64,000 bases of DNA from Tubulanus polymorphus (taxonomy: Eukaryota; Animalia; Nemertea), in assembly GCF_964204645.1 (NCBI RefSeq), contig NC_134028.1, positions 7,936,001-8,000,000 on the forward strand. Direction: 5' to 3'. The notes beneath the pieces are model-generated. The model was not told where the DNA came from, searched no databases, and saw only the letters and a list, made by a program, of their open reading frames with translations. Positions 304-53,605 of this stretch are shown in pieces (within the stretch, counting starts at the first letter, position 1; the number at the start of each line of letters is the position of its first letter). The translations under genes were made by a program, and so were the position numbers.

Positions 304-3300
304 CAGATGAATGTAAGCTTGAATGTTGAATTCTGACTTCAGTTTCTCATATATCAGAGTCGCGTTCATGCAAGCAGTCATTTGTATTTTAGTCAGCGGT
401 TTCTGCGATTTGCCGGCAGGAATGATAAGTATTGAATTCCAGTCGACTGCACAAGGATTCGGATTCGTCATCAATATGCTCAGCTGAGAAAAGTCAGGGT
501 AAAAACATAGTCATCGAATCGAGCAAACCAGTTTAAATTTTGTCTCGTTAAACTCGGAACTGGGCGAAGTGATTAAGCCAAATACAGAAATGTTGAATAC
601 TAAAAATCTAAACCGATGCAGCGCTTTACCAACTAAGTCTAGGTATAGTTGCAAGTGGAAGTAGAAATTCTGAACAGAAAAACTTGACTTTCTGTAAGAT
701 TTCTACTAATTGATATTAATGAGTAAGTATATTTCCTTTTGCAGATTCACCCTACCTTGCCGACATCAACATTCATACTAAATACAGCATCTAACTCGGC
801 TGGACTCATCAGAATATTTCCTTGTATGAAGCGCTTGATTTCCGTTATATTTCGTACCAACATGTCGAGTGTGACCTTCGTTTGAAATGGAGTCAGTTGT
901 TTGATCAGCATTTTGACGATTCCTTGATACAACTGACCATATTTATAGATCATTTCGAGCAAAGGTCTAGTTCCTGGGACGTTTTGAAGTCCATACAATG
1001 CGACCCGTATTCCTTCGCTCACCCTGCAACGTTTGAAAAGGGATATTTTGATAACAAGTCCAACTATCCAATGACGGTGGAATACGTACAAAGTACTATA
1101 CATACAAAAGCGGAATGTCTTCTACTCGGACAGGTATCATTTTAAGCGCATTCAACACGTTGTTCGTCCATTTAGCGTCAGTCGTTCCTGTCTGTTTGAA
1201 AAACTCGGACATCGTTGGCAGACGGATAGCTCGCAGTAGTTGACTATACGACGTATACAACCTCTGGACACTTTCAATAGCTCGCGTCCAGTTTAACGGT
1301 TTCATCGATGGCTGGTTCAGTGCTTTAATCTATGATATGAGACAATTTGTTAAGAATCAAGCATCAATGGTATGCAAGCCTCTTATACTTTTTTGCAAAC
1401 TGAGAGATTTTTATACGTCTATCATTCATGAGGTTTTTACTGGTAACAGTAGTCATTGGAACTTTCTAGTTCCATAGTTGTGTAAGTTGAGTTTGATTCA
1501 AGTTTTAAAACTGGCAGTTCGTTTTCAACAGTGAAACACTTGAGTCAAAATTAAACTCCCAGTTAGCTTACTGGATTCTGGTGGTTACAAATACAGCTGG
1601 ACCAAGATAATTGAAGAAGTCCTACAATTCAAATTTTATCTGATAGAATCTATCATTATGAAACCACAACGTTTGGGCTGTTGACTAACAGCTAACATCA
1701 GGTGGAGGAATGACCAAAACACACATAACAAAGTATATCAGCTCGCAGGATGAAAACAGAAACTATGAACAGAAAAAATCTGAATTGTGAGACTTCTTCA
1801 ATTATCTACAGTGTGCACGGATTAGAGAGTTTATTCGACTACTGAGCCAAGATGTGTTTAGTCCAAACAAACCTGTTTAAGAATGACATCAAACTTGATT
1901 AGCTTCCGTAATTCCAAAGACAATGAAGTGAAATTCGTTGTACACAACAATCTTCTGATTTCATTCTCGTTCGCAGACTTCGGCAACATTATTTCGTTGC
2001 CGCAAATCAATTGTACGAAATTTCCATTGTTCACAGCAAGTTTCAACGTCTAGAAGAAATAGAAATGCACGTTACAGGGTCCCTATTGATCATTCATTCC
2101 AGAATTCAAGGATTTTTTTCCAGGAGTTTTTCATGGAAAAGATTCCAAATTTCAAGGAGTGTATGCAATCTTATCTTTATATCCCAATTACAGTACTCCT
2201 CCTAAATCGGTACTTTTTATCTCAGTAAACCATTAAATTCGTTGGAATCTGAATGTGAAAGGCCTACGACTACTGACTAGGCCTAAAACCTAAAAATTTT
2301 CTAATCGCCAATTTCTCAAAATTCAAGGCGTTTCCAAGCACTTTTGGGCATTTAGCTAAAATTCAAGATTATGCGAGTTTTCAAGGAAACGAGGAGTTGT
2401 AGAGACCCTGGAAGATTCAACTCACTGTCGCTGGTTGCATTGACGCGGACATTACGATCTTCACCATATCTGGAGTCAGACGATACGTTTCGGCCAAAAA
2501 CTTGTTGACAATCGGACTGTTTCCGAATACCGAGCCAAGTGACAAACCGGAACCTGCGAAAGATATCGTTCCCAAGTGAAAAGAATTGCCAACGCGATAA
2601 AATTGTTAAGGAATTCGAAGCCGAATGTGTCTTACTGTGTATAGCGTTTGTTCGGTTATACAGAACATCAGCGATCATTACAACGAGGTTCAGCGATTGA
2701 CGGATTTGTGCCCAAAATTGAACGCGTAGAAAAGCTGCATCAAGTTGTTGCAAATAATTACCAAACCTGAAAATGTAGGTTGATAATGCTTTAATACTGA
2801 ATGTCGTGAAATATACCGCTAGAGCCTGTTTCTAGAAAAGAAATCATGCATTCTAATGACGTTTTCATTTCAATGAACTCAAAATTAATTTAAGGAGCAT
2901 GCTATATGACAGCCAATTGAAATCACGCATTCAGATACCGGCAGCGATGTATCAAAACTTACACAACAGCTTCAGCTTTAGGCAACTGCTGAATGAAGGG
3001 AATCATTGGTACATTGACTACGACCGACATGTTGAAATATTTCACGACGTCTTTGCCCATGAGTTTTACTCCTTTCAAACCCATAAGACTGAGTATATTC
3101 GCCTGCAACTTCTGCACCGACTGAAGAAATCGTCCAAAGTCAACCTGAGATGTACCGAGAGCCAGTTGAACCTGTAAAACGAAGGTGCAGTCAATTTCAC
3201 AGGAATCTGGAGGTTTTCAACCTAATTCCCGCCTATAGTGGCCGAATCGGGCCATAATTCAAAATTGCTGATACGCAATGAAGGGGTCAGAACACGAAAA

Positions 3301-6300
3301 TGAAAAAAGAAAATACGTCAAATTTTCAGATCAGTAATTTTATGTTATGGCCCGAATGAGCCACCATACATAACCAAAACTTTTATAAAATCTAAACCAG
3401 GACGAGGTAAATAAACCTCTCTTTAGATTTGGGTCAAAATTGTTCCATAAAACTACCCATTACTTAAGATATACTGGGCAGTTTAGGTTGAATGCTAGGG
3501 GAACTGAACCCTGATTTTTCATGATGAAAGCACTGTCGTAGCCTACCTGCTGCGTGATTCTAGCGATATCGAATTGTTGTTGTAACTGCGCTAAAATCTC
3601 TGTATTGTTCCACGTACAAAACGCATCTTTCATCAATTTAGTATCGAAACCCGGTGAGAAATGTATCACGTTGGCCATGAGCGTCTCGTTGCAGAAAATT
3701 CTTTCTATCAACTGTGTATTGGTTTGAAGCATTGATTGCGTACTGATGAACGGGATAACCTGAAAGGACAAAAAGGCGTTTCGTTTGACTGAAAAAATAG
3801 CGAGTTCGGTCAAGAGTCGATTCAAATATCCGTTTCAAAATTTACCATGTTCAACTTCCACTGCGTAGCTAAGAATCCGTTGACGAAATCCGGTCCGAGA
3901 TTCATCGTTAGTCGCAGAATTTGTTGGATTTTCGTCACGTTTTTAACGATGCTGCTCAACTCGACCGTTTTATCCACCAAGTTCACCGTTAACTTCGACG
4001 TCATCTCGTTCACGTAATCGACCGTCGTTTTCACGACCGCCAAAGCCGTGAACAAAGGTTTCGCTTCGGGGACGTTTTGCAGCGCGACGATAGGCGCTCC
4101 GAATGCTTGCAGCATCGTTGTAAAACTGTTCGGATCATTAGGATTCAGGTTGAAGTATTTCGTCAACGTTTGTTGAATCGTATTCAGCACCGGAAGGATT
4201 GTTTTGTTGACGTCGAACGCGTTCGTGATCGTCGGATCGATTTTCGGAGGATTCAAAACGATCGATTGCACGATCGCGGTTAATCGCGCGTACTGAATCA
4301 AAGACTGATTCCAATCGATTCTGACTGGATCTAATTGCGCGGCAATTGCCTTTTCCCACTGAAAACAAGCAAGAAGGAATATTTTTTCTTTACGCGTTAT
4401 CTTCTGAAAGAAGTTAAGAAATATCTAGGAACAGGATTGAGGACACTTGTTGAGAAGTTTCCTCTGAAATCTTTACCTATGCGATTGTTTTTATCGTAAT
4501 CTTACACGTACCTTCTTAGAAAAACATTTGAAGTGTGATTATCCTTTTATGTTTACTTAATTTCTCAATGTTTTATTGTATCTCAATGAATCTTATGTTT
4601 TCATATTTTGTAAAGAGCCGCGATTAAATTCAATAAGCACGGCGCTATGTTGGTAAAAAAATGTATAATCATATCATGATAGTCTCTAAAGAATATAAGC
4701 TGGAAGGCTACAACGAATTGATAACTTAATTCAAAAACTGTTTTCTTTTAAATCCACCTTACACTTTGTTTGGCTTGTTGGCTTGTTTTCTGTTAACGAA
4801 GGCTCGGTCATACTTCATATTTTACTTACATGAATTTTGATCGCCTCAACATTATATGATTTCGCAAGTTCATCAACGAGTAGTGTGCTGTTCAGGTTAC
4901 ACAGTTTTTTCTGAAACTTGGGTAGATCGACGCTGACGCCAGACGGCCGAATTAACGCTGCTATGTTCACAGTACAAAACGCAGCGACAGGATCGGGAAC
5001 CCTCAGCAGTGACATCAACTGCAAGTCAAACCCAATAGGGAACACTTTTTGGAGTAGGCATTTCTTAACCACAACAGAGCAAGACTGTTGTGTACTAAGA
5101 TGAACTGATCAAAACTACAACTCAGGATCGGTATTATAGACCAGTTCTAATCTAAATATCAGGGCCCAGTATTATATAGACTTGTATCAATATCAACCCG
5201 CGGGCTAACTCAATTCATTTTCAAGTTAGTTAGCTTATGCGGGCTAACTCAATTCAAATGAATTGAGTTAGCAATTCTTAGTCAACTGAATTGACCCCCA
5301 ATTTGAAGTTAAATCATTCATAAGATGATTGTATTCTCGGTCAGATGTATGAAGTGTAAGTCGGGTGTTTATCTGTGCATGGTGGACTATGTACCTTAAT
5401 AAAATCAATTTTCGCAGTAAGCAGACTTTGTATTTGAGGCACGCTCAATCCAAAAACTGTCTTCATAATGTCCTTGAGTTGAGTAGTGTTCTTGAACAGG
5501 TCATCTAGCGTAATCGGGTTTGCTGAAATTTCGAAGAAGAATGACGGAGATGAAGAATTCTGGCCGAAATGAACTACCGGGTAACCCGAAGAAAACAGCG
5601 CTCATACGTACCCGATGTGATGGATTTTAATTTATCTTTGATTAGCGAAGTCGTAAACTGAACCGATTTGAGAACGGCTAACGCAGTACGACCCCAGGTA
5701 GTGTTGTGATTCAAATACGGTGTAAAATGATCCAGAGAACTAACCAGCCTATAAATGGTATATAGCATGTATGTCTAAGTGATGCAATCTCTACATAATC
5801 AACAGATCGAGAATATATAGATTTATTCGCAGGAAAGTGATTTTGATTCCCCTAAGTCCCAGAATGGAAACTATTGATAAGTGTGATCATTTCGGTAACC
5901 AAATTAAAACTTTCTCAACTCAGTCTGCCTTTCGATTTGTAACTCATTCCGGCATGACTGAACAAACTCTGTAGTGCGGTCAATTCAAAATGGCTGATTA
6001 AAATATTAGAGAACAAATGTAAGATCTTATGTACATGATCTAATGTTCAGTAGCAAAGGCGATCAAGTTAGAAGTTTTGAACAAATAACTCAGTGAAACG
6101 AACGCCCTAATATCAATTCTTACAGTTGAATAATCTGATCGGCCGATAGTTGCGGCATCAGTCCAGCTTTCTGTAAGCGCTCCAACCACGCGCTGATATT
6201 TCCAGAGTAGGCAAAGAAATCGACAAGATTCGGAGTTCGAATTCTTGCCGCGAGATTGAAACTGTTCTTTTCGAGTTCTTGAACGTTCAGGAGATACTCG

Positions 6301-9300
6301 GTCCAATTGAACTGTTTCGTGTACGTTGCATTGGAGGTTATTGCAGCAATCTAGGGAAAAAATACGATATCAGAACATAAAACAAGCCATGGGTGACAAC
6401 GGTTCTTGGGCTTAGGTTTGAACTCCCAAATCACCATGCGTTAGTTCTCATTGCATTTTGGATATGTTGTATCTACGGCAGTAAGCTAAATCTTATCAAG
6501 ACAACTTTTTGAATTTTGACCCCGTTCCTCAGTTGTGTGGTCATCTCCAAGGTCATGTCAGTGAAATATAGTTTTTAGCGCCTAGATCTGCAGCTAGGCG
6601 GCGCACTGGGCCCATTCTTTGCACAACTAGACCCCCATACAAGCATCCTACATTGTTCCCAGTTATATGAATTCAAGTTTTTCCCAAGTATTTCATGGGT
6701 GATTTTTCAATTTTCCCAAAAGGAAATGAACACATACCGTCATTCAACAGTCAACATTTCAGTGGTGACTGCTTGATAAAGGTGATTTTCAAGGGAAATT
6801 GCTGAAGAAAGTTACCCTTAGCAAATGCAATATGTGAAATGTAATGAATTTCCCAAGTATTTCCCTGATTTGAGGAAAATTTTTTAAATTCTCAAATATT
6901 TCCAAACCGGGAATTATCATATAAAAATTCCCAAGTTTTTCCCAATTTCCCTGTTCTGTGGGAACCATGATCCTACCCAAGTTTCATCAAGATCAAACCA
7001 CCATTAAGGAAGCTAAGCAGCTGAAACTTACGCATGCACTCACACTCTCAGACAGACAGTGCGAAAATGAGGGTCACATGGAAGCCTGAGAACCAAAATT
7101 ATTCATGATCGAACAATAGAGTGGTCCATATATATTACATCCAATCTTACATGAAACCTTTTCTCTTTTCCTCCATCTGGGTCCAGCCCCAGAGACTCAC
7201 TAACATATCATAGAAATCCTAGGGATGAATCCTCCGAAAGCTACTTGAAAACTAATTACACGATTTTCTGTTTCTCACCTGTTGAAGCATTTTATCAACG
7301 CTGAATGCTCTAGTGAGCTCAACCATCATCATCATACCGTTAACTGAACACAGAGTTGATTTCACCGTTGTCTGGTCGGCAGTCGACAAGATCGAATTTT
7401 TCGGGTCGCAGAACATCGCCTTCAACGTTTCAGGCCACGGACGCGACGGATTGGAAACTGCTTCACGTAATGCCTGAGAGGAAATACAATCATATCAGTC
7501 AAAGCTATTTTTGAACAATATCATTTGAATACCGGTAATATGATTTTTGAATAAATTCTGGAGATGGGTAGAAACGTTCTACCCAAAGCATCAGCAAAAA
7601 AGCATTATAGTTTTATGGAATCGCCATTGTGGGTTTTTCGTAAATTGAATAGAATAGTAGTAGTTGTTTCGATGTTCGAGGCTTCTTCACCTTTTCATCA
7701 AAGTATTCACCGAGTAATCATTTCATCTTGTCATCTTGGAAATTCATGAACAAAATTTGCAAGGTCAGATTTTTACTACTTTTCTGCTTGCATGTCATAA
7801 ATCTATCATACGTGATAATTTTGCAAGGCGCACAAAAAGTTGGTTAAAGGTTCAGAATTTTACAAAAACAGCTGCATCGACGACGTACCTTAGTCGGGTC
7901 AACTGAAACTGTGAACAACATATTAACGATATCCGGACTCATTTTAAATGCGTTTTGAATTGTCATCTTCGTATAGCCAGCGCTTTTCAGAATCGAGCCC
8001 AGGGTGATGTTTTGAGCTAAAAATGACAGAAAATAATAGACATACAGATTTATTTGCCTGAATACCAGTAATCGGCGATTAAACGATTAGAAAATGTGGA
8101 AAAAACTTACGGTTTATATCGGTCATTTTTTGATTGATAATCTTGACCACAACATTAACCAGTTCAAGATGGGGCCGGACGACTCGCCAGAATTCTGTGT
8201 TCTCTATTACGGGCATGAATTCTTCCATTATAGCCGCGAATCTGAATAGAAACGCGTGGACATTTGAAATTGCTAGGTTCTTATTCAACATTTTTCAACC
8301 ATTTAAAACTCGATCTTACAAAGAACAACTAAGCATTGTCGACGCATGAATTTGATACAGAAAATGTACATAAAGTTTTTCTAGCTTGGTATTTCACAGG
8401 CCTGGTATGGGCTTGTTGAAATATTTCGGATAGGACCAGCAAGCTTTGATATTGTGGTATGAAGCTAGGCCTTTTATCCATGATGACCTAGTTTGGTCAT
8501 ATGATAAACCATTCCATTTCACTATGATTTGAAAATTGAAAGCTCTACATGGAATGTTATGTTATATTAAACTTGTCTGATATTTTATGGTCGTACACAA
8601 TATAGTCAATCAGTCATTTCTTTGGTCATTGCTAAACCTCTTTCTGGGAAACAACAGCAAAACATTTTAAGTGCCAACATTTTTTTCTTACACTGAATTC
8701 AGAGAGATAGATTATTATTCATATCTTACGTGGGTATAGACAGTCGAGGCAAATTTTGGATGTACATCGTCAGCGTAATCGGCAATGAACTGTTGAATTT
8801 GAATTCTAATGGTTTTCCGTTAAATGCTACGCCCGTTATGGTGGCCAATGCTTGTATATTCGTGTACAGTTTCCATTCGGCTTCGACGAACTTCAACAAG
8901 TCGAACTTTGTCAGACCTTGACTTGCTGCTTTGACCTGAATGATAATTCGAAAAAGGTGTAAATAGCATGGACGAACAATTTTTCGTCGGAAAAATTATG
9001 TTAACAAGCTTTTTTAATTTCGACTGTTCCTCAGTTATGAGGCAATGTTTGAAGTCATACCGCCGAAAAACAGAGTTTTTAATGCCCAATTCTGACGCTA
9101 GATGGAGCATTGGGCCCATTATTTGTAGTAAACAAATGAATTCCCATAGTAACATTGTACCAAAGTTTCATTAAGATCGATCCACTTTTAATGAAGCTAG
9201 GTAGCAGAGAGACAGACAAACACAAAGAACGACAGACAGTACGACAATGCGGGGTCTACTACTGGCTACCAGTAGATCGACAATCAGTAGGAGTTTTGGA

Positions 9301-12300
9301 CATCTTGACACACAAAGCTTTTAGTTATCACGAGTATTCGAAAGAAAGTGGTGAAAGGGTTTTAAGTCCGTGTCAGTGAAAATGTTCTTACCTTTGCAAC
9401 CAAATTCTTTATGTTGAATTGTTTTTCGATCTCGGCACTAAGGGCAGGATCACTGATATTACAGAACGCTGATTTGATATCGGATGCAGTTATAGCCGGC
9501 GGGTAGAACATGTATTCATCTATTAACGATTCGTTGCAAACTACGGATTTCAGAGACACCGTCATCAAAACCAATGGAACCACCTGAAAATAACAACATT
9601 AAAATCAGCTATTGAACTAAATGCGTAGAACAGATTCACCAGATGATCTCTTAAGATAGGTAAGAAGATATGAATATTCAAAAACTCATCCTAGGAATAT
9701 CGTTGAGTATAACTAGACATTATCAATCAGCATAAGCAAAGTGGTGCTGGCAAGTGATTTAGAGTATCCGACTATAGGGCAAGACACTTTGTTGCCTCTG
9801 CCCAGGAGTAATTGCCTTTCTTTGGCATGAAGCTCAGATGTCACTTTTCCCAAAAAGGCAGAGAAGGCCAATACACAGATAGAGGCTAGAGGATAATAAC
9901 ACCACGCAGAAGTTATCAGTTGAGTTCCTAGAATGGATAGATGAACCCCTTGGCCGAGTACTGTAGATGTAGATGTACTATACTTGGGATGTTCCTTCTA
10001 CCAGCTACGAGGAGACATATGCTAGGTTAGATAATGCTCAATATTATAATTAAAATCTGAATGTATTTGAAATCAATTTCTTGGAGGATAAACATGCTGT
10101 CCATAATTGTTATAATTATCATATGATTAAGGAGTGGACAGGAAATGAGTCTAGGCCCATTACTTCAGCTAGCAGAGGACCATTCTGAGTGGAAGCAAGC
10201 CGTGAGGACTTGTGGCATCAAAGGCCTACCAGCTAAGACACATGATGATGAATTTTAGAATATGAATTTCATGATACTCTTAACCCTTTCAGTACGTCTA
10301 ACACCGCATTGCGGTGTATAAATCAGCGATGGACTTTGCTAGTACATTGCACTGTGGTCTAATGATTTAATTCATAAACGTTTTTATCTCTAATGAAAGA
10401 TGGCAGTAACTGTCAAACACAGTTAGTCATAAGTAAGTAACGATACACTGATTACACGCATTATAGGCCTAGCTGATGCCTGTTATTTGATACAATGGGC
10501 TGGAATTTTTTAACATTTTCAAATTATCTCCAGCACTTTACAGTATTAATTAATTAGCATTGAAAGGGTTAATGTATACACGGAAAGGATGTTTGATCGA
10601 TTTAGAACCTCGCGTACCTTATCCAACTTGAAGGAAACAGCCATCAGATTATCCAAAAGCTGCGGATGCATTTTTGCAACCGTTGTCATCATCGCGCGTA
10701 TTTTCTGCATATTAGTGAACAAACCACCGATGTCCAACGTCTGATTCGTGACTTTCGTCATTCCGAGCACGGTATTTGTGAAATCGAGAACGTAAGTCAT
10801 AGCCGCATACATCGGAGCCATGCTCTCGTAAAGCGTTGTATTCTTCAACAATCCATCGAACACTTTAATCAACGGATAAAACGTTTTCAAATCCTGCAAA
10901 TTCACCGTTTTCATAAAGTTATCGATGACGCGCTGATATCTATCGGCCGTTAGATTAGGAGGGATGAACTTCGGCGGATTCGCGATAACCGCCATCAACA
11001 AGTCGAGAAACTTTTTGCTCTTTGCGAGCAATCGCAACCAATCGATTTTTGGTGAAAAGTTAGGCATCAAAATCTGCATAACAGCGGCGAGGACTCGGTC
11101 GAATCCGTACGCGAGCATCAGCTCTTCGGACATTTTAGTTTCGTTGATTTTACAAAATAGTTCTTCGATGCGCGTAGCGTTAACTTCGGGACCAACGTTC
11201 AACGCGGCTACTAATCCTCCGCTACACAAGTCCGCCCGCCAGTTTTTCGACGTCAGTAATTTCATGAGCACGGCCGGATTGCGAAACGGAGCTTTCATCA
11301 ACGCGTCGATTATTGTCGGAGACTCGTTCAAAGCGATGTTGACGATGTTGCGAAGTTGCGGGAGGTTTGCGGTCAGATTTTCCAGCGTGTACGTCGCTCC
11401 CGGCATCAACAGCCCCGACACTTGACCGATAAACGCCGTCAGTAATTTATCGAGTACGAAAGCGGCTGATTTCGCGTGCGTACTGTTGTCCAACAACGGG
11501 ATCAACGCCGAATAAGTTTGAACAATCCTGGAATTAATTAATAAATAATAATACATGTGATAATAGTCATTTGTGTCGTACAGTTTTCCGAAGTTCAAAT
11601 GCGCTCCTCCAGATAAAGGCGAAACGAGCACGGGACAGTTTCGTTTTCATGAAAATTTTGAACTCAGTAAGTGACATGTTTAACACAGTTCGCAGAGAAT
11701 CAATGTAGTTATTCGAAAGTCTAGGAGCAATCCGTGAAAATTACAATTTTTGGAACTAAAATTTGTATTTCCGAGTAGTACTTACCCTTTCCTATGGTTT
11801 TTGCCAATATTTTCTAAATTTGGATTTATCGCCAATGGTTTTTCTATACGACCCGGCCCTGCGGTATTGCATTTAGCCACCGGCGAAATCCGCCATCTTT
11901 TTACGTCATAGCAGACCAAAAAAAAAAACAGCTATGCGGGGCAGGTGGGCGGGATTCCCACCATAGGAAAGGGTAAGTACTACTCGGAAATACAAATTTT
12001 AGTTCCAAAAATTGTAATATTTCCGTCGAGTACTGTACCCTTTCCTATGGTTTTTGCTAGACTAGCCTAGCACAAGGATGGTGGGAAAGGTAGATAGAAA
12101 AACCACCGGTCAAACGCAAGGTAAGAGGGAAAAAGAGAGCACTTACCCAAGCACGGAATGGAGCACTGTAGCACAGGGAAGACCGGTTGGCCACAGTGAG
12201 TCCGTCCAGCTCAGGGCCCCCCCCAGAATTTTGCGAAATTAATACTTGCAGATATGAGCCCAAACTATGTACAAGGATACACCCCCTGTGATCCTGATAA

Positions 12301-35716: not shown

Positions 35717-35766
<50 letters not shown>

Positions 35767-38700
35767 CGCGATTTATAGCTTCGAATCAGCTGCAACTGAC
35801 GGATATCCTTGCGAAGAGATCAGTTACTGATGTGAATTCAAAGATTCTCAGTCAGGATGTCTCGTGAATGGAGGAAAAAATTCACTCGGCCCGATCAAAA
35901 AATGTAATCAAAGGTAACGATCGGCTATGCATAAATTTGCTAGTCAGTTGTCTTACGGAGATGCAGGAGACATCTATGCTCTTGTGTCTCAAGCATATAC
36001 CGTAAGAAAATTCAGGATACAATTAACGAACAACTATAGAGCAGAATAACCACACTCAAACGTAGAGAATAAGTGAGAGAGATCATCGTACGAAACAATG
36101 TATTTTTGTTGGTAGAATTATGAGATTTTTCACTTGATTCCCTGAAAATAGCACTTTTTCTATGTACGGTATCACTCGAATTGTCTTTGTATTAAGACCA
36201 AATAAAGTAAAGTCGTAAACCCATGCAGTTAATTAACTACCGGCAATGACATTTTGAATTTTTCATTGAATGAATTCTCGGTTTTAAAACTGTACGTAGT
36301 GGGTTTTTACTTTATCCTTTTTCATGTATAGGTTTTTCTTGGATCGGATCATCAGTCGCACAGAGTCTTAGTAGCAGACGTTTTTTGTTTTTTTTCTTTA
36401 CTTACGCAGTATCCTATCAGTTAAATTCAACAGTAGATCACCGGTCGAATAGATTTTATACAAATTCAATTCATAAGATCCATCGCGGAGAGACGCCTGC
36501 ATTATGTTATGAACGGAAGCGAGCGCTACTTCTATCGTCCTGCGAAAAAATATCAGAAATGTTAATGATACGTACGTTATATTTTGGCTTATAAATTCGT
36601 AACAATTTTTTCTCCAAAAAAGAAGAAAAACCGATGACTCTTAACAAATGCATCATTGATAATTATCTTATCAAATAACAGTTTTAGATTCGACCCTTGA
36701 CATTAAAGAATTGCAAAGTAATCGAATATAACTATGACTCAATCATATCAAACTCTTTTGTCCTTCAAAACACAATCAGACAATTTAAAAAAAATCAAGA
36801 ATTAACCAACTCCTGTCACTCCAATAATTTATACAACTAAGGCTAAAAAAATGACACCTTGTTTCTCAAAGTCAACTGGGCCATTTTGTAAACTACAATC
36901 AACAGTAGAAATGCCCAAAGTAGAAAAGGGCACCTTTTTACAATACGAGGTAGATAATTCAAAACAAAAAGCACAAATTCTTCAAGATTTTGTCTTTATT
37001 GCCCGGAAACTACATCTCAATGCAGTTAAAATCCTAGAAAGCACTTCGCGTCAGGACTTTAATTGCTTCGAATTTGCTGCAAAAAGCAGATTTTCAAAAT
37101 TTCAGAATGCCCTTTTTATTTTCAAAATACCCTTTTATAAGTTGTGCTACCTTCAACAGTGGTCACTGGATCCGCCCCTGATCAAATTAGTAATCAGTTC
37201 ATTTCTATAGCTGCCAGGTTCGTTAAGGTTAGCTTGAACATGATTTCAAAATGGTAATGTACAGGGTAGATGGACGGCCGGCCGGGTGAACTTAAAAACT
37301 CAGCAGAAATGAGAAACAAGATATCAATTTATTTCAGCCTAAGTTCTTTAATTGGCAACATTTTTATTACAGCACTTGATAAAAGATCATTGTTTGGACC
37401 CTGTCTAGTATGAGGGAGGATTTCTGCAACGTATTCTTCCTATTTCAATGAATTGATATTTGATACGTTTTCGTATCGCCAATTAAGACCTGTACGTACA
37501 CAAAGGCGGCTGGCATTTTTCCAATCAGTATACATACGTAAATGTCATGAAAGTTTGAATGCAAACCTGATATGTTCATTCGTTTTCGAGAATTCTATTT
37601 CGAGAGAAAAAAACTTTGCCCACAGCCACAAGTATATCAAAAAGCAGGCTTCCACTCGTGGCTTTAGAATTAGAAAGGTAATTCATGAAAAGATATGGTA
37701 TGTCACAATGGATCGAATTCTATGTCAATCCAAACTGATTTGTACTTAGTATTCGTCTCAATTGTGAGAAAAAGGGCATCAATATAAATGGAATATTTCA
37801 AATTAGGTGCCTAGTACAATGAAATTCAATTTCTAGTTATACTCATAGTAAAAAAAAGTGTGGGTATCTTTATCTTAGTGTTATGAACGCAGCTAAACTC
37901 AAGTCTGATCCTGCTCAAAAGTCTGATCCTGTTCGAAAGGAAAACTGCCATTGGGGACCACACCCGTACACAAAGAACAAACTTTTTAAAAATTAGCTCA
38001 ATACAACCTAGACAAAAGCGAAATTCAGAAAGCATTAATGCGTCATATGATTCCACAGTCCACACAGACGCACAGTTGCCAATATTTGAAGTCTTTTAAA
38101 GCACTTATAGTGAATACAGCGACGAAGCAGTTGACATTGAATAAATACTGAGTACTACATGACAGTTTTCATAACATGCTTATAACTTGTCTGAAAATCA
38201 ATATGCCGAACTCTAAAAATATATGTTTAGCTAAAGGGGTGTATGTTTCATTTTAGACCGTCTGAAGAGATTCTAGTATTATAATTACAATATCATGTGT
38301 CCTTTCGTTTACAGCGGTATGTCCAATCAGGGAAGTGTAATGAGTCTCATAACACTTCCCTGACATTCATGTCCAGAAATTACACAGAACACAAAGTCAG
38401 TAACTTCCGGAAAATTTTTCTCCGGAATCGTGCCAGAAATTTCTGGAGGATATCTGGCCGGGGATGGGTTAGATGGATAGAGGTTAGGGTTACGATGGTA
38501 AGGGTTTAGATGTGTTAGGGTTTAGGGGGTTAGGGTTTGATGCGTTAGGGTTTAGAGGGTTAGGGTTTCGTTGGTAAAGGTTTAGGGGGTTAGGGTTTAG
38601 ATGTGTCAGGGTTTAGGGGGTTAGGGTTTCGATGGTAAGGGTTTAGAGGGTTATGGGTTTCAATGGTTAGGGTTTAGACCAAAGACACTTTCCAGAATAT

Positions 38701-41700
38701 TCCGGAAAATTCTGTTATGTGTAATTTCTGGACTTAACTTCACTTCCCTGGTCCAATATAACCTTCACAGCCCAGCGCTTATTGCCAAGAGGACTATAAT
38801 GTCCTATAAGCATGCTAAGGTGTATCTTAAGCTACGCTCTGATCGGGTTGGGTCATTAAGTCGACCTGAGCTTAGCCTAAAGCATCCAATTTTAAAATTC
38901 CATAAGAATGCCACAGAAGATTGAAATTAGTGAACATTGATTCGGGGAATGATAACTACCGGTATGTAAGATGAATGCCTTCTAAATGTATATAGTACAT
39001 GACTGAACTGCAACCTCTCAGATGATGGAACAAGACGGAGAAATATCAATCAGAAAGCTGGCCAAAGTACTCAAGGATTGACACGGCAAAAAATAGTTGC
39101 ACTTATGTGTTCAATATTCCCATCACTATTTTTTTACCATTGCACCTATTAACTGTTAAACAATTCTAAGTGATACGTTGCTTGGCAACTAGTCATGCAA
39201 GCTAAATGGATTGTTCCACTCGTATTAAGCACTCTCATAGCCTAATAATAACGTGCTTAATAATGACGGCCAAAACTTATCAGTAAAAAATAATCATTGC
39301 CGATTAAGTAAATTCCTTCATCTCGCAACGGGAACTGAGTCCGAGGCATTATTAGCATGTATCTTTTTTCCAATGGGATACCGGCAATGCCACTGAGGGA
39401 AGCGAAGCTTCAATTTCTTCTACATTTCAATTGAATTCGAGTCAACTTATCCGATTAGTAAATCAATTTTCAGTGAAACCAATACCATACAATGAGTGAG
39501 AAAGGCAATCTTATGTCTATCCGATGACTCGTTTGATAATTTTCGAATTCGGAAGCCTAAAATTCAAGTTCAAATTTCATTGAAAATGAACTGATTTTCA
39601 CTACGAATAACCCAGTGTTTTGTTGTGTTGGTGAGTGTTTCTGGTGATTGCCAGTATCCCATTGATGGGAAGGACAGGATATTTTGATTAAGGATTTATA
39701 TTCACGATTTTCACAAACCTGTTCATGTCCGAGGTGCCATTATTGAAAATTAGTTTCTCAAATTGACTCCAGAGATTTTCCAGCGAAATCTTCGACAACG
39801 GTTCGAATAGCGGTTTGAACAGATCGGCAGAAGCGATCAATTTCTCGATGAATGTTTTCGCGGTGAATACAACGTCGGTCCAGTTCATCGACCCCTGGAA
39901 GGGCTTCGATTGGTAGGACGCAACCTGAAAGAAATTATAAATCAGATTCTTTTGTAATTCTAAGGAAATCTGTCTTACGCAAAAGAAAAATCGATAATTG
40001 CGGTTTAACACTGATTGCATGCTTGTTTTCATATACACCAGACTACAGGGTCTGGAGACATGCACAGAGTTAATCATCTGCATCCAGACACTAACTTCTC
40101 ATGTCCGGGCCATCCAGAAAACCAGAAAACTAACTTGAAAGTTTATTGACGCCTTAAGAAATAACACATGTATTGCGTGATATTGTCGACAAACAACAAA
40201 TGATGTAATATAAATCATATCGTATCAAGGAACTTATGGATTTGAATATACATGTATCGATAATTGAATCTAATTGACCAGCAACCAGTCTAGCCTTGAT
40301 ATATTGAAGATGTAGCGCATGTATGCGATAAAACCTCCGCATCTCTCCGCGATAAAATGAATATCAAAATTTATCAAAAATAAAAGAGTTATGAAATATT
40401 ATTAATTACAAAATAAACGCCTAAATTTACGGTTGTAATTGTTATTTAGAAACGCCAATATTGATGACGTAGTGCATGCACATCAACTCACACAAAACCC
40501 CTTAAATAACACTAACTAGGTATCAATGTATATAAACATTATTGAGTAATAATTTTTTTACGGCCTCAAAAAACATTAACAAGACAGCCCATAAAACGAA
40601 TGTATCCAAAACATACAGACCATGACAAAGAACAACCACAGCAGACATACCTGTTGCATAATAGCATCAACGTCGAGTTCAGTGGAGAATTCTTTGACCA
40701 GCTCCGTTATATTCATTCGACAAATCATCGCCTGATACCGACGCAGTTGCTGTACGTCCGTACCCGGAGTAAACGTCCACATCGACACGAAACCGGGATC
40801 GACGCAGAACGCACGATGGAGAGCTACGGGCTTGTCCGGCGAGTTATCGATTACATCCAAGACCGCTTTAAACTGCAAAAACACAAATCATTCGAACTGG
40901 ACTAAGGAAAAGAATCTTGGCAAGAAAAAAGCTTTGGATATTTCATACTTCTTGAATAGTTCTTGAATAGTTTCATCCATACTGATAATGAAAACCAAGG
41001 GCTCGGGTATATAACAGGTAAAATTACTGACAGTAATCAGCTGTCTACACTCATCCCCTATATCAACTATATATGAATCGACTTAAAACACCCCAGACGT
41101 AAGACTTTCATCACCACATTTGCAAAAGATTACACCGAGTAAATGCAGGGGTATATCTAGAAAATAGAAGGGACCCTCGCGGCATCCATTTTTTTCGAAA
41201 GATTTATTCGTTTAGATTGCATTTCCTGCGTTTGAATTCATTATTCTCAAATGAATTTTGGTATGATTCCTTACATTTTCTCAATTTTTTTATTCAATAT
41301 TCTGTACTCGGATAAAAAAAAGGAGGAATGCACCCTAAATCCTCCCCCTGGAATGTCGGAAGGGAAGCGGATCCAGGCTTTAGATTGGTACTTGCATTGC
41401 CAAAGACAAGACAAATGTCAATTGGGTGTTTCTTCTCAAATGTAGTCAATGGAAGGCTACAATACCAAACATCAAAGTCCAGGAGTTTGAAACGAAGTAG
41501 CTAATAATGATTTGTCATATTGAATAATGTTAAAATTCTTAGAGCACGGAGAGGCATGGCTGAGTTTATGAAAAATTGTACAGTAGATAAATACAAACCT
41601 TTTGAAGGTTTAGCGTTGCAGTTCCCATAGCAACAATTGAGTCAGTAGTCATTTGAAGAGTCTTTTTCAGGAATTCCTGTAATTTTATGGATTTGCCAAA

Positions 41701-44700
41701 CATATTTCCAAACGTCAATTGCATGGCTGTAAAAACAATGAGATATTTGGTTTTTAGACATTAAATATTAATCACATTTTATGAAGTGCAATAAATATCT
41801 GCAGGCGGAAAGAGAAAGCTGTGAAAAACAGTATTTAAAATTACGTAAGCCTCAAAATTCTATACCGGTAAATTTCATCTATGAATTTCATGATACAGTT
41901 CATTGAAATGACCTGTAATCGTAGGAAACCATGACTAAAAGCAAAACCTTATAATACAAGCATAAACAGATGCGGAGCCCAATCACGATTCAAGTCAAAA
42001 AGTAGCCAAAATCATAAAATATTTTATCCAATACTTTTTCCAAGAAAAAAGGGTTTTAACTAGCACCATGCTAATCAACAAGAGTAGAAATGCATGGTGA
42101 ATTATAGTAATATCAACCCCGGTGCTCGCGTTCTAAGATCAAGAACCCTCCCTTAAATTGGAGTACAAATTAATTTTATCAAACAAGTCAATAGTATATA
42201 CAAAATAAATACATGCTAAGGTCCAGAGGACATTACCAGCAATTACAATTATTATAGAAATGACAGCCCTCCCTTGAATGAAACTAACAAATCATAAACG
42301 AAAATTTAAGTCAACGCTGTTTACAAAGCCGAATAATGAAGCTATGAGCAACCATAAATCTAAATGATTTCAAGAATTCAATTTAGTTTTGTGTATCTAT
42401 AATTTCTTTTGGTGAGAAAATGGCTGACGACATTTTAACGCTCGATTTACGTACTGGGCACTCGGACCGATTCTTGAGAATACCATTTCATTAGTTTGTT
42501 GGCGAGCGACATGATTTTACGAGTTTCATTCCAGGTAGGTGAATCCGGACTGAATTTCTGGATGATCGGATCCAAGGTTTGCAGAATGAATCCCAAACTG
42601 GAAAATTGAAGAAAAATAAGATGATTAAGTGGTTTTCCATGATTTTTCAGCTACAGAGGGATATTATAATTATGCTATACCCCACACACCAGCAGATATA
42701 TTGGTGACTCATCCTCCTTCGGCAGGGATTCGAACCTGATGGCATCGCTAGATTCGGCCACATCACGAAACCCTGCTACACTAGCCCGAGTGCAAAGGAA
42801 CGTGCACAGTTTTGCCACAAGGAAACTTGCTACCCCAATCAGATTGCCCTCGTATGATCGCTGAAGCAAATTTCACAGATAAATTATAACCGCCAAAAAA
42901 CCTGCGCTAAAATAAAACAGGATTTCTGATTGGCTGATAATTACATCATCTTAGCTGCGCACATGGGCTAGTGTAACAGAGTTTTGTACCGTGACAGTCT
43001 CGATGTCATCAGGTTCGAATCCCTGCCGGGGAAGGATGTGATGGACTAGTTCGGAGGAGTCTCTTACCCGGCGAAATCCGTTTTCGAAACGTTGACCGAT
43101 CGCTCGACAAACTGTCCAACGTCTTTGATCCATTTCGCCAAGTGATTCAGATTCGGCATGTTCGCATCGGACACTTGGTTTCCTAACGCAATTATATCGG
43201 CGAGATCGTTGAAACCTTTACTGATCGTGTAGTTTCCCCCTAGTTCGGCCATATGCGCGATCTAAAATATCATCATACAATTTTTGAAATAACAGGGAGG
43301 CCTATTTAATTCGACTTGCTTTTTCCCTAACCGTTCCCAAACATGCGCGTTGCTCTGCTAAGAATCGAAGTAAAGGATTTGACTACTGATAGAACCGATG
43401 AAAGAGAATGGTCATCATTCTGTAAAGTTGCCTCAAAACAGACGTCTGGTACACCGAGTCAACTTAGATTCAGAGTTAGATTGGAATAGGGGGATTTCAG
43501 AAATGTGGCCATGAGAATTAGGGGACGAATTGAATATTTGTAAAATTCTGATACCATTAAAAAAAATTTGTGGGTAATATTGTATCACGAAGATCAAACA
43601 ACAATAAACTTTTCCAGAGATATAGAGAGAGCACCGATGACAGTGTTGTCTCCAATAGCAACAGTTGAATCGTTAAAACGTGCTTATGTGGCGTTAAAAG
43701 TATTTTTAACTATTCGTAAAATTCTGATAACGTAACAAATAATATCTGGGTAATTGTGTCATACATTTTTCCAGAGATACGACGAGAGTGTGCAGATGAC
43801 AATCGTCTCCAATAGCAACGATCGAATCGTTACAACGCCCTTACACGGTAGTAAAAAGTACGCTGCTTTATACTCACGATTTTCATGATTTTCGCGACGT
43901 CAATTTGTTTCTGCACGTAGTCGACGATTTCCGGTATTTTCGACGAATTCAGTCGACAAAGCTGATCGGCGATCGACGCCTGCGTCGATTCGTCCTTAAA
44001 CAGCAGATATTTACCGAATCGCGTCGAATTGCAGACGATTCCTTTGAAATCAATGTTACCCGTTAGATTCAGAAGCTGCAAGAGAACAGAATCGAAATGA
44101 GTTTCATGGATGTGGGGGGGGGGCGTGTAATGATCATTGGGAAAATTTTGAAATTTGTCTGGAAAGGCTTTAAAAAATTGATACCGTGTTTCTCATTTCT
44201 TTTCAGCTTAAAAATTTAACAGGCCAGCCACCTATTTACCCTGAAGTTAGTTTTTTCAAAAACCATGATCAAGCTAATCATTACAGACCTAATAGCTATT
44301 GAAATGTACTGATAACAAATTCTATTGCGATATATAAAATAACCCTGGGCCCCATTTCAGAGACAGGTATCAACTTTAACCCAGGGACTAACTCAATTGA
44401 AATTGAATTGAGTTAGGCCCCAAGTTAAAGTTAATACCAGTCTGTAAAACTGGCCCCGACTGATTAGGAGAAACAAGGTATCATTTTAGCCTTATTACCA
44501 TGGTTTCTCGTTGCTAATACGGCGGTGGTTGTCACCCAGGTTAAGGATTTACCCCTGGCGCTAACGTTCAATCCGGTACCCAGTCTAGGAAACCGGGCCC
44601 ATGGAAATTTTTTGGGGCAGCACTAGAACATCTATTACAAGGTCATGTGCATATTACTGTAGCAGTGTGTATAATATGTTTTTTAAACAGGGCTATTTCC

Positions 44701-47700
44701 TTCTGGCCCCAGAAAAGGATTAAGTGTGACTTTTTTCTATATCCGTTTTAAAATGACCGTGTTTAGAAGTGAAAGCAAAATTTCATTCTAATTTCTGGCA
44801 TTTCTCGCGTAATACATAAAGATATTAGCAATACAGCAGATTAATTCTTTCTTTCTATTCATACATAAGACTCCCTTTCTTGCCTGACCAAACGCATTAC
44901 AATTGACTAATCTAATTCAATGTTGTAGGGTGCCATCGCCCATGAATACCTTGAACGCCACACAGAAATCTGTCTGGCAAAAGATATACACATTCATGAA
45001 TAGATAAAAGCTTTATACCCGCAAGCAGTAATTTGTGTTCGCGAAGATTCCCTATATAGACGCATAGATGTTTTTCAGGCCCTGATGGCGCGGCGGGACA
45101 AAAATTCGCAATTCATGAAACGAGTTTCATCTATCTTAAAAGAGTTAAAGCATCTTTTATCATGGTTATCTTATACATCAAATTACAAATATACATTTAA
45201 AAATGAATTACAGGTATAACATTATGTCAAAAGAAACCCTTAAAACATGGAAGTGATTTCGTTCTGCTTTCAGAGATTTCTGGAAAAGTATAAAAGAGAG
45301 ATTGAATCGCATTGAATCGATCGAAAAAAAGGAACGTTCGCGCATTTTATTTCGATGTGCATTGATTTCAGTTCTTGACCCTGGTTTATTTTGGTCGTTC
45401 TGCGTCGACAATGCGCGGAATTCACGAACAATAACTACGAATGCTCGGTGCGAAAACAAGTTCCCATTCAACACCGATTCCGTACGGTCATGAAAGTTAA
45501 GTCATACGAATTGTTATGTAAAATGGAAAAAATTATGCAAAGCATTCGCGTCCAGTCGGCGGCTTACTTATCGTTCTTTTATTCCATGCGAATCTCTAGA
45601 AAGCAGTGTTTTCAATAAGAGCCAGGTCCCAGGTCCCAGACCCGTCTGTTGTTTATAAAGGCTCCGCCTGTTTTTTCAAACCAGCTTTTGTTTCAGGGAC
45701 TGTGACATAGGGGGGACCCTCCTGTTTTTCAAAGGGACCTGGCTTGTTAATTTCTTATTGAAAACACTGGGAAGCTAAATGGGGTAATAATCCTTTCATC
45801 GAATCAAGTGGGAATTCAAGCATTTCCACGCGCATCTGCTGTTAAACATGTACTTCTCTTATTTGAAACAGAGGCAACCATCGAATGGGACCTGAGTGGG
45901 ATTTTATTGCCCGACCCTTCGTTTTGCAACAGCTTTTTAAAATGATAACCACTAATATTTACAGGCCATTCTGATTACGATTTTCTAATGCAACTTAAAT
46001 CTTCATTCAGCCTGGAAATTTTAAAACAGTTTCATAGTCCAAAGTTATCAGATAGCTATTGCAATCAGATTTCAATGCTCAAGCGTGCATGGTGGGCGAG
46101 TGGTTGGCGAGTTCGACTCTGGAAAGCCAGGTCGTGGGCTCGAACCCCGTACATAACCGTAGTGCCTTCAGGCAAGACACTTTCCCTCATTGCGTCTCTC
46201 CACCCAGGAGTAATCGGGTACCTGGTCCGATAGATGACTCCGAGCTGCTCGGATGTGACTTCTCCCCAGGGAGAGATGACTGATACATGAATAGAGTAAT
46301 AGGCCGGGGTAATAATACCAAAATTTGGAGCGCACTCGAACCGACTCTGGCTGTGATACCTGCGCTATACAAATGAGACACTATCACTACTATCATCATC
46401 GAACGAATGATTTTTTTTTTCAATCAAAAAGTAAAAGAGCGAATGTAACTTTACCCCTTCCATGTTGATGGTAGCGTCGAGCAAGGCTTTGGCCATCAGA
46501 TCACTCATGACACGTTCGGTCTCCACCAAATACTTGCGAATTACTTCGGGATCTTTGACCAGACTGCTCACCGTGAAACTGTCGTCTGAAATTTTAGAGT
46601 AGCAAGCAAGATTAAACGCTGGAATATTTGAGTCTCGACGATATCGTTTTCTCCGTCTTGATATAACAACATGAAGAAGGTTGGAGAGATGGATAGCCTA
46701 CCGGTATATGGTATCAAGTGGTCTCCATATGCTGGAATTCTAAAGGGCTGTACCTAGCTGGGGGGGGGGGGGGCAGGGGGCAGTTGCCAGCCCAGAATTT
46801 TTGGATAAGTGTCCTTTTTGTAAATACGATTGTTATATTCAACAAAACTGCCCTTCTTCATGTTTGTCTGCCCCCTAAAATTCAAATACTCTGTACGGCC
46901 CTGAAAGATCGTTTAATGATAGGGGAATATAGACTTACTGAGAAACTGTTGCACTTCTTTTTTCTGTAACATTTCTCCCAAATCATCCAACAATTTGATA
47001 CTTGTATCCATGTTGTTCAGAACGTTGCCGACTTTTGAATCTTTTTGCGTCAGCGGTTTTAGATTTTTCACCAGTTTTGCGATTCTGTCATATGAAGAAA
47101 AAAAAACACGAGTCACACGGGTCCAATGCAATTACATAATTTAGTGGTAAGGTATTGAATAAAAGTTTGGTATTTTTTGCATATCTTATGAAGTGCACTG
47201 ATTATATCTTATAGAAATGCGTTAGAAGTAGATTGCTACACAAGAGGGTTGATCGTATTGCTACAGAGCATTGGACACTTGACGAGGATATAGGCTTCTA
47301 GAAGCCAAGGTGATGCGAGTAAACGGGATTTCCTATTGAGCAATCCGACCAATTTTAACGCATTTACTAGACAGTTTGAAAAAAAACATTTAGGCAAAAA
47401 AAATTGATACCCTATTCCTCATTTCTGCTGGTCATTTTTTATAGAAATGTTTTATTGCAGTTTACTAAATGACGCAACCAGGAGAAACAAGGTTTTATCT
47501 TAGCCTTAGGCCTGCCGGTGGTTTTCCAAATCTGAGAAACTATAGGTATCTGCCTTACGCACACCTAGCTACCTTTTGCTCGCACTCGCGGCTTTTGATG
47601 TTTGCGGTTCTACATTTTGACACTTGTTATTCACGTTACAGACGTATGACTGCATATACGACAAAGCACCAGCGCTGGGAAGTGACCGCGGATTGTAAGA

Positions 47701-48372
47701 ACCTGAAAATAAGCCAAAGAAAAAGGTTAGAAAAGAACCCGCGATATTCTATTGTCGAAGTAAACTTTTGTGACGCGGTAAAACTGCATTTTTGGGCTGG
47801 TTATAAATAGGTCATCATAGGTAAATATCATCCTTATCATTAAAACAAGAAAAACTACCATGAAACATCAGTGCCTCGAAAGAATAACATGCATAATTAT
47901 TCAATATTGATGACAATAAATAATATACTTCCGACGCCAATGTTTACTGAACTTCACTATAATTGCATTATAATCAATCGCTGATTTGGGACAATTTCTT
48001 GAAATTATTATCTTTATTTAGGACAGGATCTGAGTGTTTCCTTATTGTTTTGTCTTATCTTGGAGTGAATCAGCGACTGAACATTTGGCATGCACGCAAA
48101 GAAACCCATGACGTAACGCAACCAGACCAAGCCATTTTGAAGGCAAACAACTATTTGTTCAAACTTAGAACATCAAGTCATAGACTATCAATCGAAAAAG
48201 ACAGGCATTTAAATATTGATAGAAATAGCCGACACCTACTCTACCAATTTACTTAAGTTAACGAAATATCTATCCGCATGTATATGATCTCTTGTTCTGT
48301 ATGATTACTAGTTAGTGTTCTGTCAGCTCATCTCAATTCAGAGTAAATTTCAGGAGCAGTTTCATCATCAAT

Positions 48373-52955: not shown

Positions 52956-53605
52956 TGTTCGTTTGAAAACTGATTATATCAACAATCCAAGAACGGTATC
53001 ATATTTTCTTTAAAATCCGTAGTTGAAAAGAATATTCTATGAAATAATTGATGTCCTGTTGTTTGTTGGTGCTGTAAATGAAAAAATGATTTTTACAAAT
53101 GATATTCGACAATTGCCTGCTGGACCGAAAACATACTTTTATCAATATCTATCATTTCCGGTAGCAGTATAATTATGTCAAAATGGATTGAAAATTTGGT
53201 TTCGATATTCATTTCATGTGTGACAACTAACTAGCAGCGATGTGGAATGCCCATATGAAAATTTCCAGAACGATATTAAACTTTGTCCAAGACAGGCTAA
53301 TACTACTTTTACAATTTGTAAAACTTTCTGATTTGTTACAAATTAGTTAATCAATCGAAGGCACCAAGAGTACAACTTCGGAGAATAGCGGCAACTTTCT
53401 TTTTAACTGTCAGTCAAAATGCCCTGACAAACATCGATCCTGCATTCATTCTTGTACTGTACTGTAGAGATGGTGAGAACCGAGCGATGATGAGTTAGTA
53501 GAGTACAGTAACCACAGACTTCCAGCATCCAGAAGTCAGCAAAATGTTGCTTTTCATTTTCAGCAAATAATGTCACTCTATGAAACTTATTCACAACGTA
53601 CTCAC

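Follow-up and report, generated by a model that had tools for sequence, protein, structure and literature searches.

ABCA1 is thought to pass lipid through a tunnel in its extracellular domain (ECD) to apolipoproteins, and ABCA12 loads glucosylceramide into lamellar granules (PMC13161189). In ABCA2, cholesterol has been described as queuing in the tunnel, with an exit proposed by way of the lid (bioRxiv 10.64898/2026.08.25.746927). In the structures of ABCA4, residues 101-300 form a distal region in which residues 138-271 are an unmodelled hollow lid, C75 is bonded to C324 and lipid-like density lies in the tunnel (PMC7932691, PMC8501128). In mouse ABCA13, vesicle localisation and cholesterol uptake depend on the long N-terminal region, which the study's passages on it describe as lacking conserved domains (PMC7948424). 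The window examined here comprises 64,000 nucleotides (nt) of the ribbon worm Tubulanus polymorphus (positions 7,936,001 to 8,000,000 of the forward strand of contig NC_134028.1, assembly GCF_964204645.1). The first 4,261 codons of a spliced ABCA gene lie on its minus strand, and in the first extracellular domain (ECD1) of the encoded protein the tunnel/lid segment is repeated in tandem at least 19 times. We are highly confident of this architecture and of the homology behind it, and hold the full explanation, in which the copies would form a closed, lipid-holding loop, tentatively and at slightly less than even confidence.

The transporter class and its clade were already known, and what is new is the repeat architecture of ECD1. 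Repeats in an ABCA ECD1 were not found in the literature as searched by title, abstract and passage, a search outside which most subscription papers and supplements lie. With the array, the giant extracellular domains of the ABCA12/13 clade, described as being without known domains in the parts of the literature consulted, receive their first structural interpretation, and the ABCA lid is marked as an independently duplicable domain with defined boundaries.

Reading frame and module array

The window is eukaryotic DNA with a GC content of 39%. On its minus strand, a splice-aware chain joins 70 coding exons from an ATG at 52955 to position 304 and encodes 4,261 amino acids (aa) with no stop codon and with GT-AG ends at 69 of 69 introns, after which the open frame runs off the window edge. 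The chain is our own model, with splice and codon scores trained on 48 exons of the same gene picked by eye, and it leaves out the stretch 12,050-17,750 as transposon. Exon 1 (52890-52955, 66 nt) contains the start codon and the LWKN elbow helix and is covered by a piece of sequencing run X2 (52889-53072), and exon 2 (52339-52432, 94 nt) encodes the first transmembrane segment (TM1); the two have the same lengths as ABCA4 exons 1 (c.66) and 2 (c.67-160). Exon 3 (47573-47702), separated from the TM1 exon by a 4.6-kilobase (kb) intron and placed by the frame chain, begins the base of ECD1 with a PSAG motif, C75 and C81, while the C54 codon is formed across the exon 2/3 joint. In PDB searches, exon 3 matched ABCA7, ABCA4 and ABCA1 at E 0.016-0.05, which is weak alone and stands amid chance antibody matches. 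Two features of full ABCA transporters, the LWKN elbow helix with TM1 and the ECD1 base motif with C54, C75 and C81, are therefore present. An earlier annotation made from the letters alone (the sequence-only reading) had given the transporter the range 304-47100, which encloses the modules and leaves the LWKN and TM1 exons outside. TM1 is the sole segment with transmembrane-level hydropathy (2.88; next highest 1.59), and by the same measure TM2 was not found in the 4,261-aa frame. More than 4,200 aa follow TM1, so that ECD1 is far larger than that of ABCA1, as had been expected from an estimate of at least 4,000 aa, and TM2 and the nucleotide-binding domains (NBDs) lie beyond the window.

The modules begin after residue 96 and form 19 units of 211-235 aa, the last of which is cut by the window edge; the repeat itself had been recognised in the sequence-only reading, with a broader unit length of 200-260 aa. 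Each module is built from four exons with intron phases 2-1-0-0 and carries one Cys pair with a spacing of 14-27. The 19 Cys-pair segments all lie on the minus strand, with ends within 4 bases of where they had first been placed, and comprise 18 separate phase-0/0 exons of 153-222 nt and one segment inside a 910-nt exon. The motif first written for them is looser in practice, as the Cys pair is present in 19 of 19 modules, C-x-x-N in 13 and a complete N-x-S/T glycosylation sequon there in 11. Intron loss has produced three fused exons (910, 513 and 268 nt). Across the 4,261 aa, 38 of 43 cysteines fall in the 19 pairs, four belong to TM1 and the N-terminus, and one is unpaired and sits in the exon with a conserved Trp (the W exon) of module 3. 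We infer one disulfide per module from the paired cysteines.

In leave-one-out profile searches, every module but one reached 30-90 bits (18 of 19), the exception being module 3, the most decayed copy, at 11.6 bits; shuffle maxima were 4.9-10.8 bits (200 shuffles each), and reversed sequences scored up to 8.3 bits. This bears out the self-similarity on which the idea of a repeat depended. Pairwise identity between modules is 8-24% (mean 15%), and DNA-level similarity among the module exons was not found at E 1e-5, indicating that the repeats are old. A recent duplication or an assembly artefact is ruled out for the same reason, as the module exons are unlike as DNA. Both here and in the ribbon worm Lineus, modules 13-15 and 16-18 look like two copies of one block of three modules, and the intron loss common to modules 14 and 17 fits such a block duplication. 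The array probably grew by duplication of the symmetric four-exon unit between phase-2 introns, and these symmetric boundaries mean that modules can be gained or skipped in frame. The predicted helices are amphipathic and rich in sequons, in agreement with the sequence-only reading: 14% of 18-mers exceed an amphipathy of 0.4, versus 4% in shuffles, and there are 78 sequons versus 39 +/- 6 by chance.

The modules follow one another along the minus strand. Module 1 (43068-47084) consists of exons 47084-46939, 46585-46455, 44075-43878 and 43261-43068, and module 2 (39719-42597) was found by profile, with the joint between its Cys and W exons bridged by one X2 record. Module 3 (34325-36539), the most divergent and with a Cys spacing of 14, and module 4 (32339-33987; profile) are absent from the RefSeq model discussed below and are covered by X2 pieces 35043-35194 and 33298-33482, respectively. 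Modules 5 (30173-32095), 6 (28200-30082) and 7 (26420-28108) are supported by profile, X2 joints and RefSeq comparison, module 8 (24984-26272) by profile and RefSeq comparison, and modules 9 (23313-24625), 10 (21187-22776) and 11 (19638-21098) by profile and X2 joints, while a 767-nt contig spans module 11 through module 12 (18059-19560; profile). The 910-nt fused exon (10618-11527), with 0.89 of its words in run X2, holds the whole of module 13 and the first half of module 14, and the second half of module 14 (8730-9583) comprises Cys exon 9583-9392 and W exon 8935-8730. Module 15 (6124-8241; profile) is followed by module 16 with the first half of module 17 (3846-5748, including the 513-nt fused exon 4358-3846). 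The second half of module 17 (2963-3759), module 18 (1106-2766) and module 19 through its Cys exon 483-304 (304-1023), all identified by profile, complete the array at the point where the gene extends past the window.

Homology, relatives and clade placement

At the level of sequence and exon structure, the module was shown to be homologous to the single distal tunnel/lid segment of ABCA1, ABCA4 and ABCA7. A module profile built without them gave one match, at residues ~100-330, in 12 of 12 vertebrate ABCA1 and ABCA7 proteins, with scores of 12-48 bits, while reversed and shuffled controls did not exceed 4.7 bits. There was likewise one match in the ABCA1-like proteins of amphioxus and chiton, and there were two in that of a hemichordate. 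When a module from a hemichordate is aligned with human ABCA4, it covers residues 149-244 and the two cysteines fall in register. The gene structure points the same way, with the first six exons measuring 66, 94, 130, 146, 131 and 198 nt with phases 0-1-2-1-0-0, and the ABCA4 boundaries c.66/160/302/442/570/768 giving 66, 94, 142, 140, 128 and 198 nt with the same phases (PMC7544654). By these sizes and phases, three of the exons in every module are the counterparts of ABCA4 exons 4-6; the W exon, which is the fourth, ends in phase 2, and there is no like boundary at ABCA4 c.858. ABCA1, ABCA4 and ABCA7 thus share LWKN/TM1, C54/C75/C81, the exon structure and one distal module with the window gene, and differ from it in having one module rather than at least 19 and in belonging to a separate clade. 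Serial amplification of an ABCA1-type tunnel/lid segment, as first proposed, is supported by both the profile matches and the shared exons. Separately, hemichordate ABCA1-like proteins P0312 (Glandiceps) and P0287/P0034 (Saccoglossus) have two modules, apparently through an independent lid duplication within the ABCA1/7 clade.

Far from being peculiar to this genome, the array characterises an entire subfamily of invertebrate proteins within the ABCA12/ldd clade. When a profile was made from the 19 Cys exons, it matched 144 proteins at E 0.001 among 1.84 billion, and a transporter-core search returned 166 long ABCA proteins, of which the best 120 were listed. With a module profile built from the window only, there are 27 copies in Ptychodera P0001, 18 in P0003 (6,516 aa), 14 in Owenia P0004 and 11 in horseshoe-crab P0151. 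An iterated profile, built from the invertebrate giants and so partly circular in its counts for them, gave 23 modules in a complete Lineus protein of 7,432 aa, 22 in Liolophura, 19 in Lymnaea and Biomphalaria, 17 in Octopus, 15 in Priapulus, 14-15 in oysters, 12-14 in sea urchin and 10 in Macrostomum; insects and ticks had 0-5 when filters were applied, and two moths had 5-6 when they were not. The search of invertebrate proteomes and ABCA1 suggested by the sequence-only reading therefore recovered giants on the one hand and a single copy per vertebrate ABCA1 or ABCA7 on the other. Relatives with 8-27 modules and up to 7,432 aa are spread through bilaterian invertebrates, compared with the 5,058 aa of ABCA13, which has been called the largest ABC protein (PMC7948424), and ABC proteins of more than 7,000 aa thus exist split or unnamed in databases. 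In P0151 and P0215, TM1, the modules and both NBDs form one open reading frame (ORF) filling a 16.8-16.9-kb contig, which we read as spliced transcripts. Two neighbouring giant paralogues, P0011 and P0179, were noted in the freshwater mussel Sinanodonta, and a Bulinus snail model (P0163) in which modules flank an NBD on both sides is probably two fused genes.

The best-scoring relative is the Lineus protein, against which the first 320 aa of the window gene score 656, compared with 338-483 for other giants, 221-311 for ABCA1/7-like proteins and 151-175 for vertebrate ABCA12. The modules are largely colinear between the two ribbon worms (window-Lineus pairs 1-1, 2-2, 4-4, 5-5 and 10-9 to 14-13). 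Because window module 19 pairs, weakly, with Lineus module 18 of 23, about 4-5 modules and the transporter core likely lie beyond the window. By this colinearity, the remainder would comprise about 4-5 more modules, TM2-6, NBD1, the second transmembrane domain (TMD2) and NBD2, for a total of ~7,000-7,500 aa; in relatives these core domains are seen in one chain, and the window gene's own lie outside the window. A phase-compatible chain, orthology with Lineus and single-ORF relatives together uphold the view that the exons form one ABCA gene. Sea-urchin RefSeq isoforms differ by ~391-aa two-module deletions among copies that are 81-91% identical, and Ptychodera copies are up to 95% identical, indicating that the array is still changing in some lineages while it is old in the ribbon worm.

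The window gene is likely a ribbon-worm member of the ABCA12/ldd clade, to which it is tied through N-terminal and module orthology with Lineus, the core grouping being shown for the complete relatives. Transporter-core trees were built with FastTree (45 rows) and IQ-TREE (39 rows, after removal of six near-duplicate or long rows). In the IQ-TREE tree, a branch with 100% support in the Shimodaira-Hasegawa-like approximate likelihood-ratio test (SH-aLRT) places the multi-module giants and vertebrate ABCA12 on one side and the ABCA1/7-like, ABCA3-like and Trichinella rows on the other. Insect Lipid droplet defective (ldd) is nested among the arthropod giants, and the core trees did not settle the branching order of ambulacrarian giants and ABCA12. 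We take ldd to be CG34120. A mite study placed Drosophila CG34120 as sister to human ABCA12 and ABCA13 (PMC3724490). Ldd has been reported to export lipids from photoreceptors to glia, in an account whose relevant passages do not mention repeats (PMC11900885). At ~4,000 aa it is long like the giants, and 2-6 modules can be detected in it alongside further Cys pairs; compared with the window gene, its modules are fewer and more decayed.

Vertebrate ABCA12, a glucosylceramide transporter, shares with the giants its clade (to which ABCA13 belongs by PMC3724490), an enlarged ECD1 and Cys pairs that are kept where the first and the last module would stand. At the last of these positions, 11 of 14 long ABCA12 rows from non-mammals score 10-31 bits, and a further profile run gave an 11-13 bit match in two of seven ABCA12-type rows and 19 bits in an alligator row. 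In these profile searches a regular ~220-aa array was not found in vertebrate ABCA12, whose internal segments are unlike the module, so that the proposed comparison with ABCA12 held for the last module and failed for the interior. Non-mammalian ABCA12 proteins reach 3,400-5,500 aa (P0220, P0231, P0250, P0254, P0216 and P0234, from bird, turtle, newt and sturgeon), and in those of birds and turtles a segment of ~600 aa is duplicated internally, the copies being near-identical, rich in Cys and without detectable relationship to the invertebrate module.

Splicing evidence and possible roles of the array

The exon chain was compared with four sequencing runs and a RefSeq model. Runs X1 and X3 span introns, X4 yielded no pieces, and X2 has pieces that end at exon boundaries; X2 also includes unspliced pieces. 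Fifteen X2 joints were listed of 25, all from the stretch examined, 17,900-34,650; of those listed, 14 are predicted introns with CT..AC ends, two of them crossing module boundaries, and the fifteenth is a repeat joint. Together with a joint inside module 2 that also matches a predicted intron, 15 introns are supported altogether. XP_074647739.1 (LOC141903514, Tubulanus polymorphus) is annotated as an uncharacterized 1,353-aa protein, has no Pfam family and extends from module 1 into module 9; of the 46 exons compared, 24 are identical to window exons. It skips exactly modules 3-4 (32339-36539) in frame, as an isoform or a prediction error. The X2 run carries exon-bounded pieces of the Cys exons of both modules, indicating that these exons are transcribed. 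Among the 120 listed of 4,055 matches there was no C-terminal Tubulanus model.

Several observations weigh against the architecture and homology set out above. None of the four runs is recorded as RNA, and the splicing evidence comes from one run, X2, of unrecorded kind. No joint from exons 1-3 to module 1 is among the X2 joints listed, so the link rests on intron phases and on the relatives, and the RefSeq model is without TM1 and omits modules 3-4. The core trees contain neither ABCA13, ABCA2 and ABCA4 nor the window gene's own core. The disulfides given as resolved in the accounts of ABCA4 (PMC7932691, PMC8501128) do not include the Cys pair of the lid, and the disulfide pair of the module is for this reason our reading of the cysteines. 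PDB sequence searches with the Cys-exon and two-module alignments returned no ABCA1, ABCA4 or ABCA7 and gave chance matches such as HIV protease and designed helices, and HHalign of the module with owl ABCA1 gave a probability of 0.7% (E 0.08). Apart from these points, a word-based homologue search with the 303-aa exon found none among 2,682 candidates (532-2,000 aa only), and Pfam contains no family matching the modules.

The sequence-only reading envisaged the array as a long rod or continuous lipid conduit, and this view is weakened by the disposition of the conserved cysteines. Eleven long invertebrate proteins have cysteines between the last module and TM2, and in most of them the spacing, read by eye and blurred in some by extra cysteines, is ABCA1-like (equivalent to ABCA4 C324, C370 and C519). 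The array thus lies between C81 and the partner of C75, which suggests that the chain returns to the base of the ECD and that the array is likely a loop, ring or hairpin rather than a one-way rod. Prediction of adjacent modules, which had been proposed as a check, gave a confident fold for a relative and no solved-structure match. The AlphaFold2 model covers Lineus modules 11-12 with the start of 13 (orthologous to window modules 12-13) and was made from a 30-row alignment with three rows from the window; it is all-helical, repeats the same pattern twice and has a mean predicted local distance difference test (pLDDT) score of 86.6 and a predicted template modelling (pTM) score of 0.59. Single-sequence AlphaFold of the 303-aa exon gave no confident fold (pLDDT 39). 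Hundreds of diverse module copies make the lid predictable (pLDDT 87), though it is unmodelled in the ABCA4 maps. Fold searches with the two-module model found no solved-structure match above background (Foldseek best E 0.11; VIA-align best Z 5.7, over 84 residues at 3.1 A, and Z 4.5), and these negatives show neither a new fold nor a difference from ABCA, in which the ABCA4 lid itself is unmodelled.

Our analysis points to an attached lipid reservoir of many lid pockets as the most likely role of the array, a preference that falls somewhat short of even confidence and stands ahead of a scaffold, a conduit and a shed lipoprotein, in that order. The transmembrane domains, powered by ATP, would move lipid into the hydrophobic tunnel in the way that has been proposed for ABCA1, and the many amphipathic lid domains would replace the single lid that hands lipid to an apolipoprotein. 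The lid array is thus predicted to be a covalently attached, high-capacity lipid acceptor, whose closed loop may take up and hold the lipid that the pump exports, either at the cell surface or within the lumen of a secretory or lamellar organelle. It is tempting to speculate further, and with some doubt, that the ancestral bilaterian ABCA12/13 united a pump and its acceptor in one protein, the acceptor being a closed ring in which 10-27 lid domains each form a lipid-binding pocket of a fold not yet solved, with a capacity tuned by adding or splicing out modules. The seemingly domain-less ECD1 of vertebrate ABCA12/13 would then be a decayed or cut-down remnant, and the modules a stable stand-in for the lid not resolved in ABCA1/4.

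A possible but less likely alternative is a glycosylated scaffold or spacer, in which the array determines the shape of the organelle, the spacing within its lumen, sorting or the binding of partners, and lipid is handled by the first and last modules only. Sequons at twice the chance number would suit such a structure, as would the freely varying copy number (8-27 in marine invertebrates, among which sea urchin and acorn worm have recent copies that are almost identical). The N-terminal requirement for vesicle localisation of mouse ABCA13 (PMC7948424) and the suggestion that ECD size restricts ABCA4 to disc rims (PMC7932691) are also consistent with it. However, internal copies keep the Cys pair and amphipathic helices at 15% identity, which would be needless in a pure spacer.

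A continuous hydrophobic conduit of modules stacked head to tail for long-distance lipid transfer appears improbable. It draws on the uniform units of 211-235 aa, colinear in two nemerteans and in the window gene without low-complexity linkers between them, and on the hollow ABCA4 lid that is continuous with the tunnel (PMC7932691, PMC8501128). Since the array is probably tethered to the base at its two ends, though, a straight rod is excluded unless it doubles back, and a pTM of 0.59 despite the high pLDDT suggests a poorly fixed angle between modules. Many fold-search rows also align model residues ~232-403 to small helix bundles, as judged from the ranges only, which fits a self-closed module.

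That the array is cleaved off and leaves the cell loaded with lipid, as an apolipoprotein encoded in cis, is very improbable. An all-helical amphipathic make-up is what such a particle would need, ABCA1 loads an amphipathic-helix acceptor (PMC13161189), and several database models have modules without transmembrane domains; these models, however, are most simply split annotations of a very long gene, the main form of mouse ABCA13 is full size (PMC7948424), and no conserved cleavage site was noticed, although none was specifically sought. Finally, the notion that the module exons belong to one or more separate genes, which could appeal to the RefSeq start inside module 1 and to the intron between TM1 and exon 3, across which no joint is among those listed, is scarcely credible given the phase-compatible chain matching ABCA4 exon structure, the clear preference of the N-terminal 320 aa for the complete Lineus protein over ABCA1-like rows, and relatives that hold the whole architecture in a single ORF.

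Intronic elements and neighbouring genes

The 6.5-kb intron between modules 12 and 13 contains a DIRS-like retrotransposon (11737-17827, minus strand) that is not part of the protein. Its reverse transcriptase and RNase H are split over several frames, and the element has a GC content of 50-54%, 120-nt perfect inverted terminal repeats and internal complementary arms, the perfect repeats suggesting a recent insertion. A 458-aa ORF within it (13766-12393), without a Pfam match, is a candidate tyrosine recombinase by its motifs.

Upstream of the ABCA gene and head to head with it lies an annexin gene (56492-60970, plus strand) with Pfam Annexin matches at 59486-59869 and 60599-60970. Its Gly/Tyr/Pro-rich N-terminal exon, near 56527, resembles that of annexin A7/A11. 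Exons of another gene occupy 62688-63998 on the minus strand and encode an acidic stretch and an RGG-rich C-terminal part, the RGG ORF being without a Pfam match. Short interspersed or high-copy repeats lie in introns at 6379-6624, 8970-9241, 22827-23151 and 31573-31891, and also at ~29640-29900, 34740-34941, 37185-37340, 42710-43038, 44165-44490 and 45660-46320.

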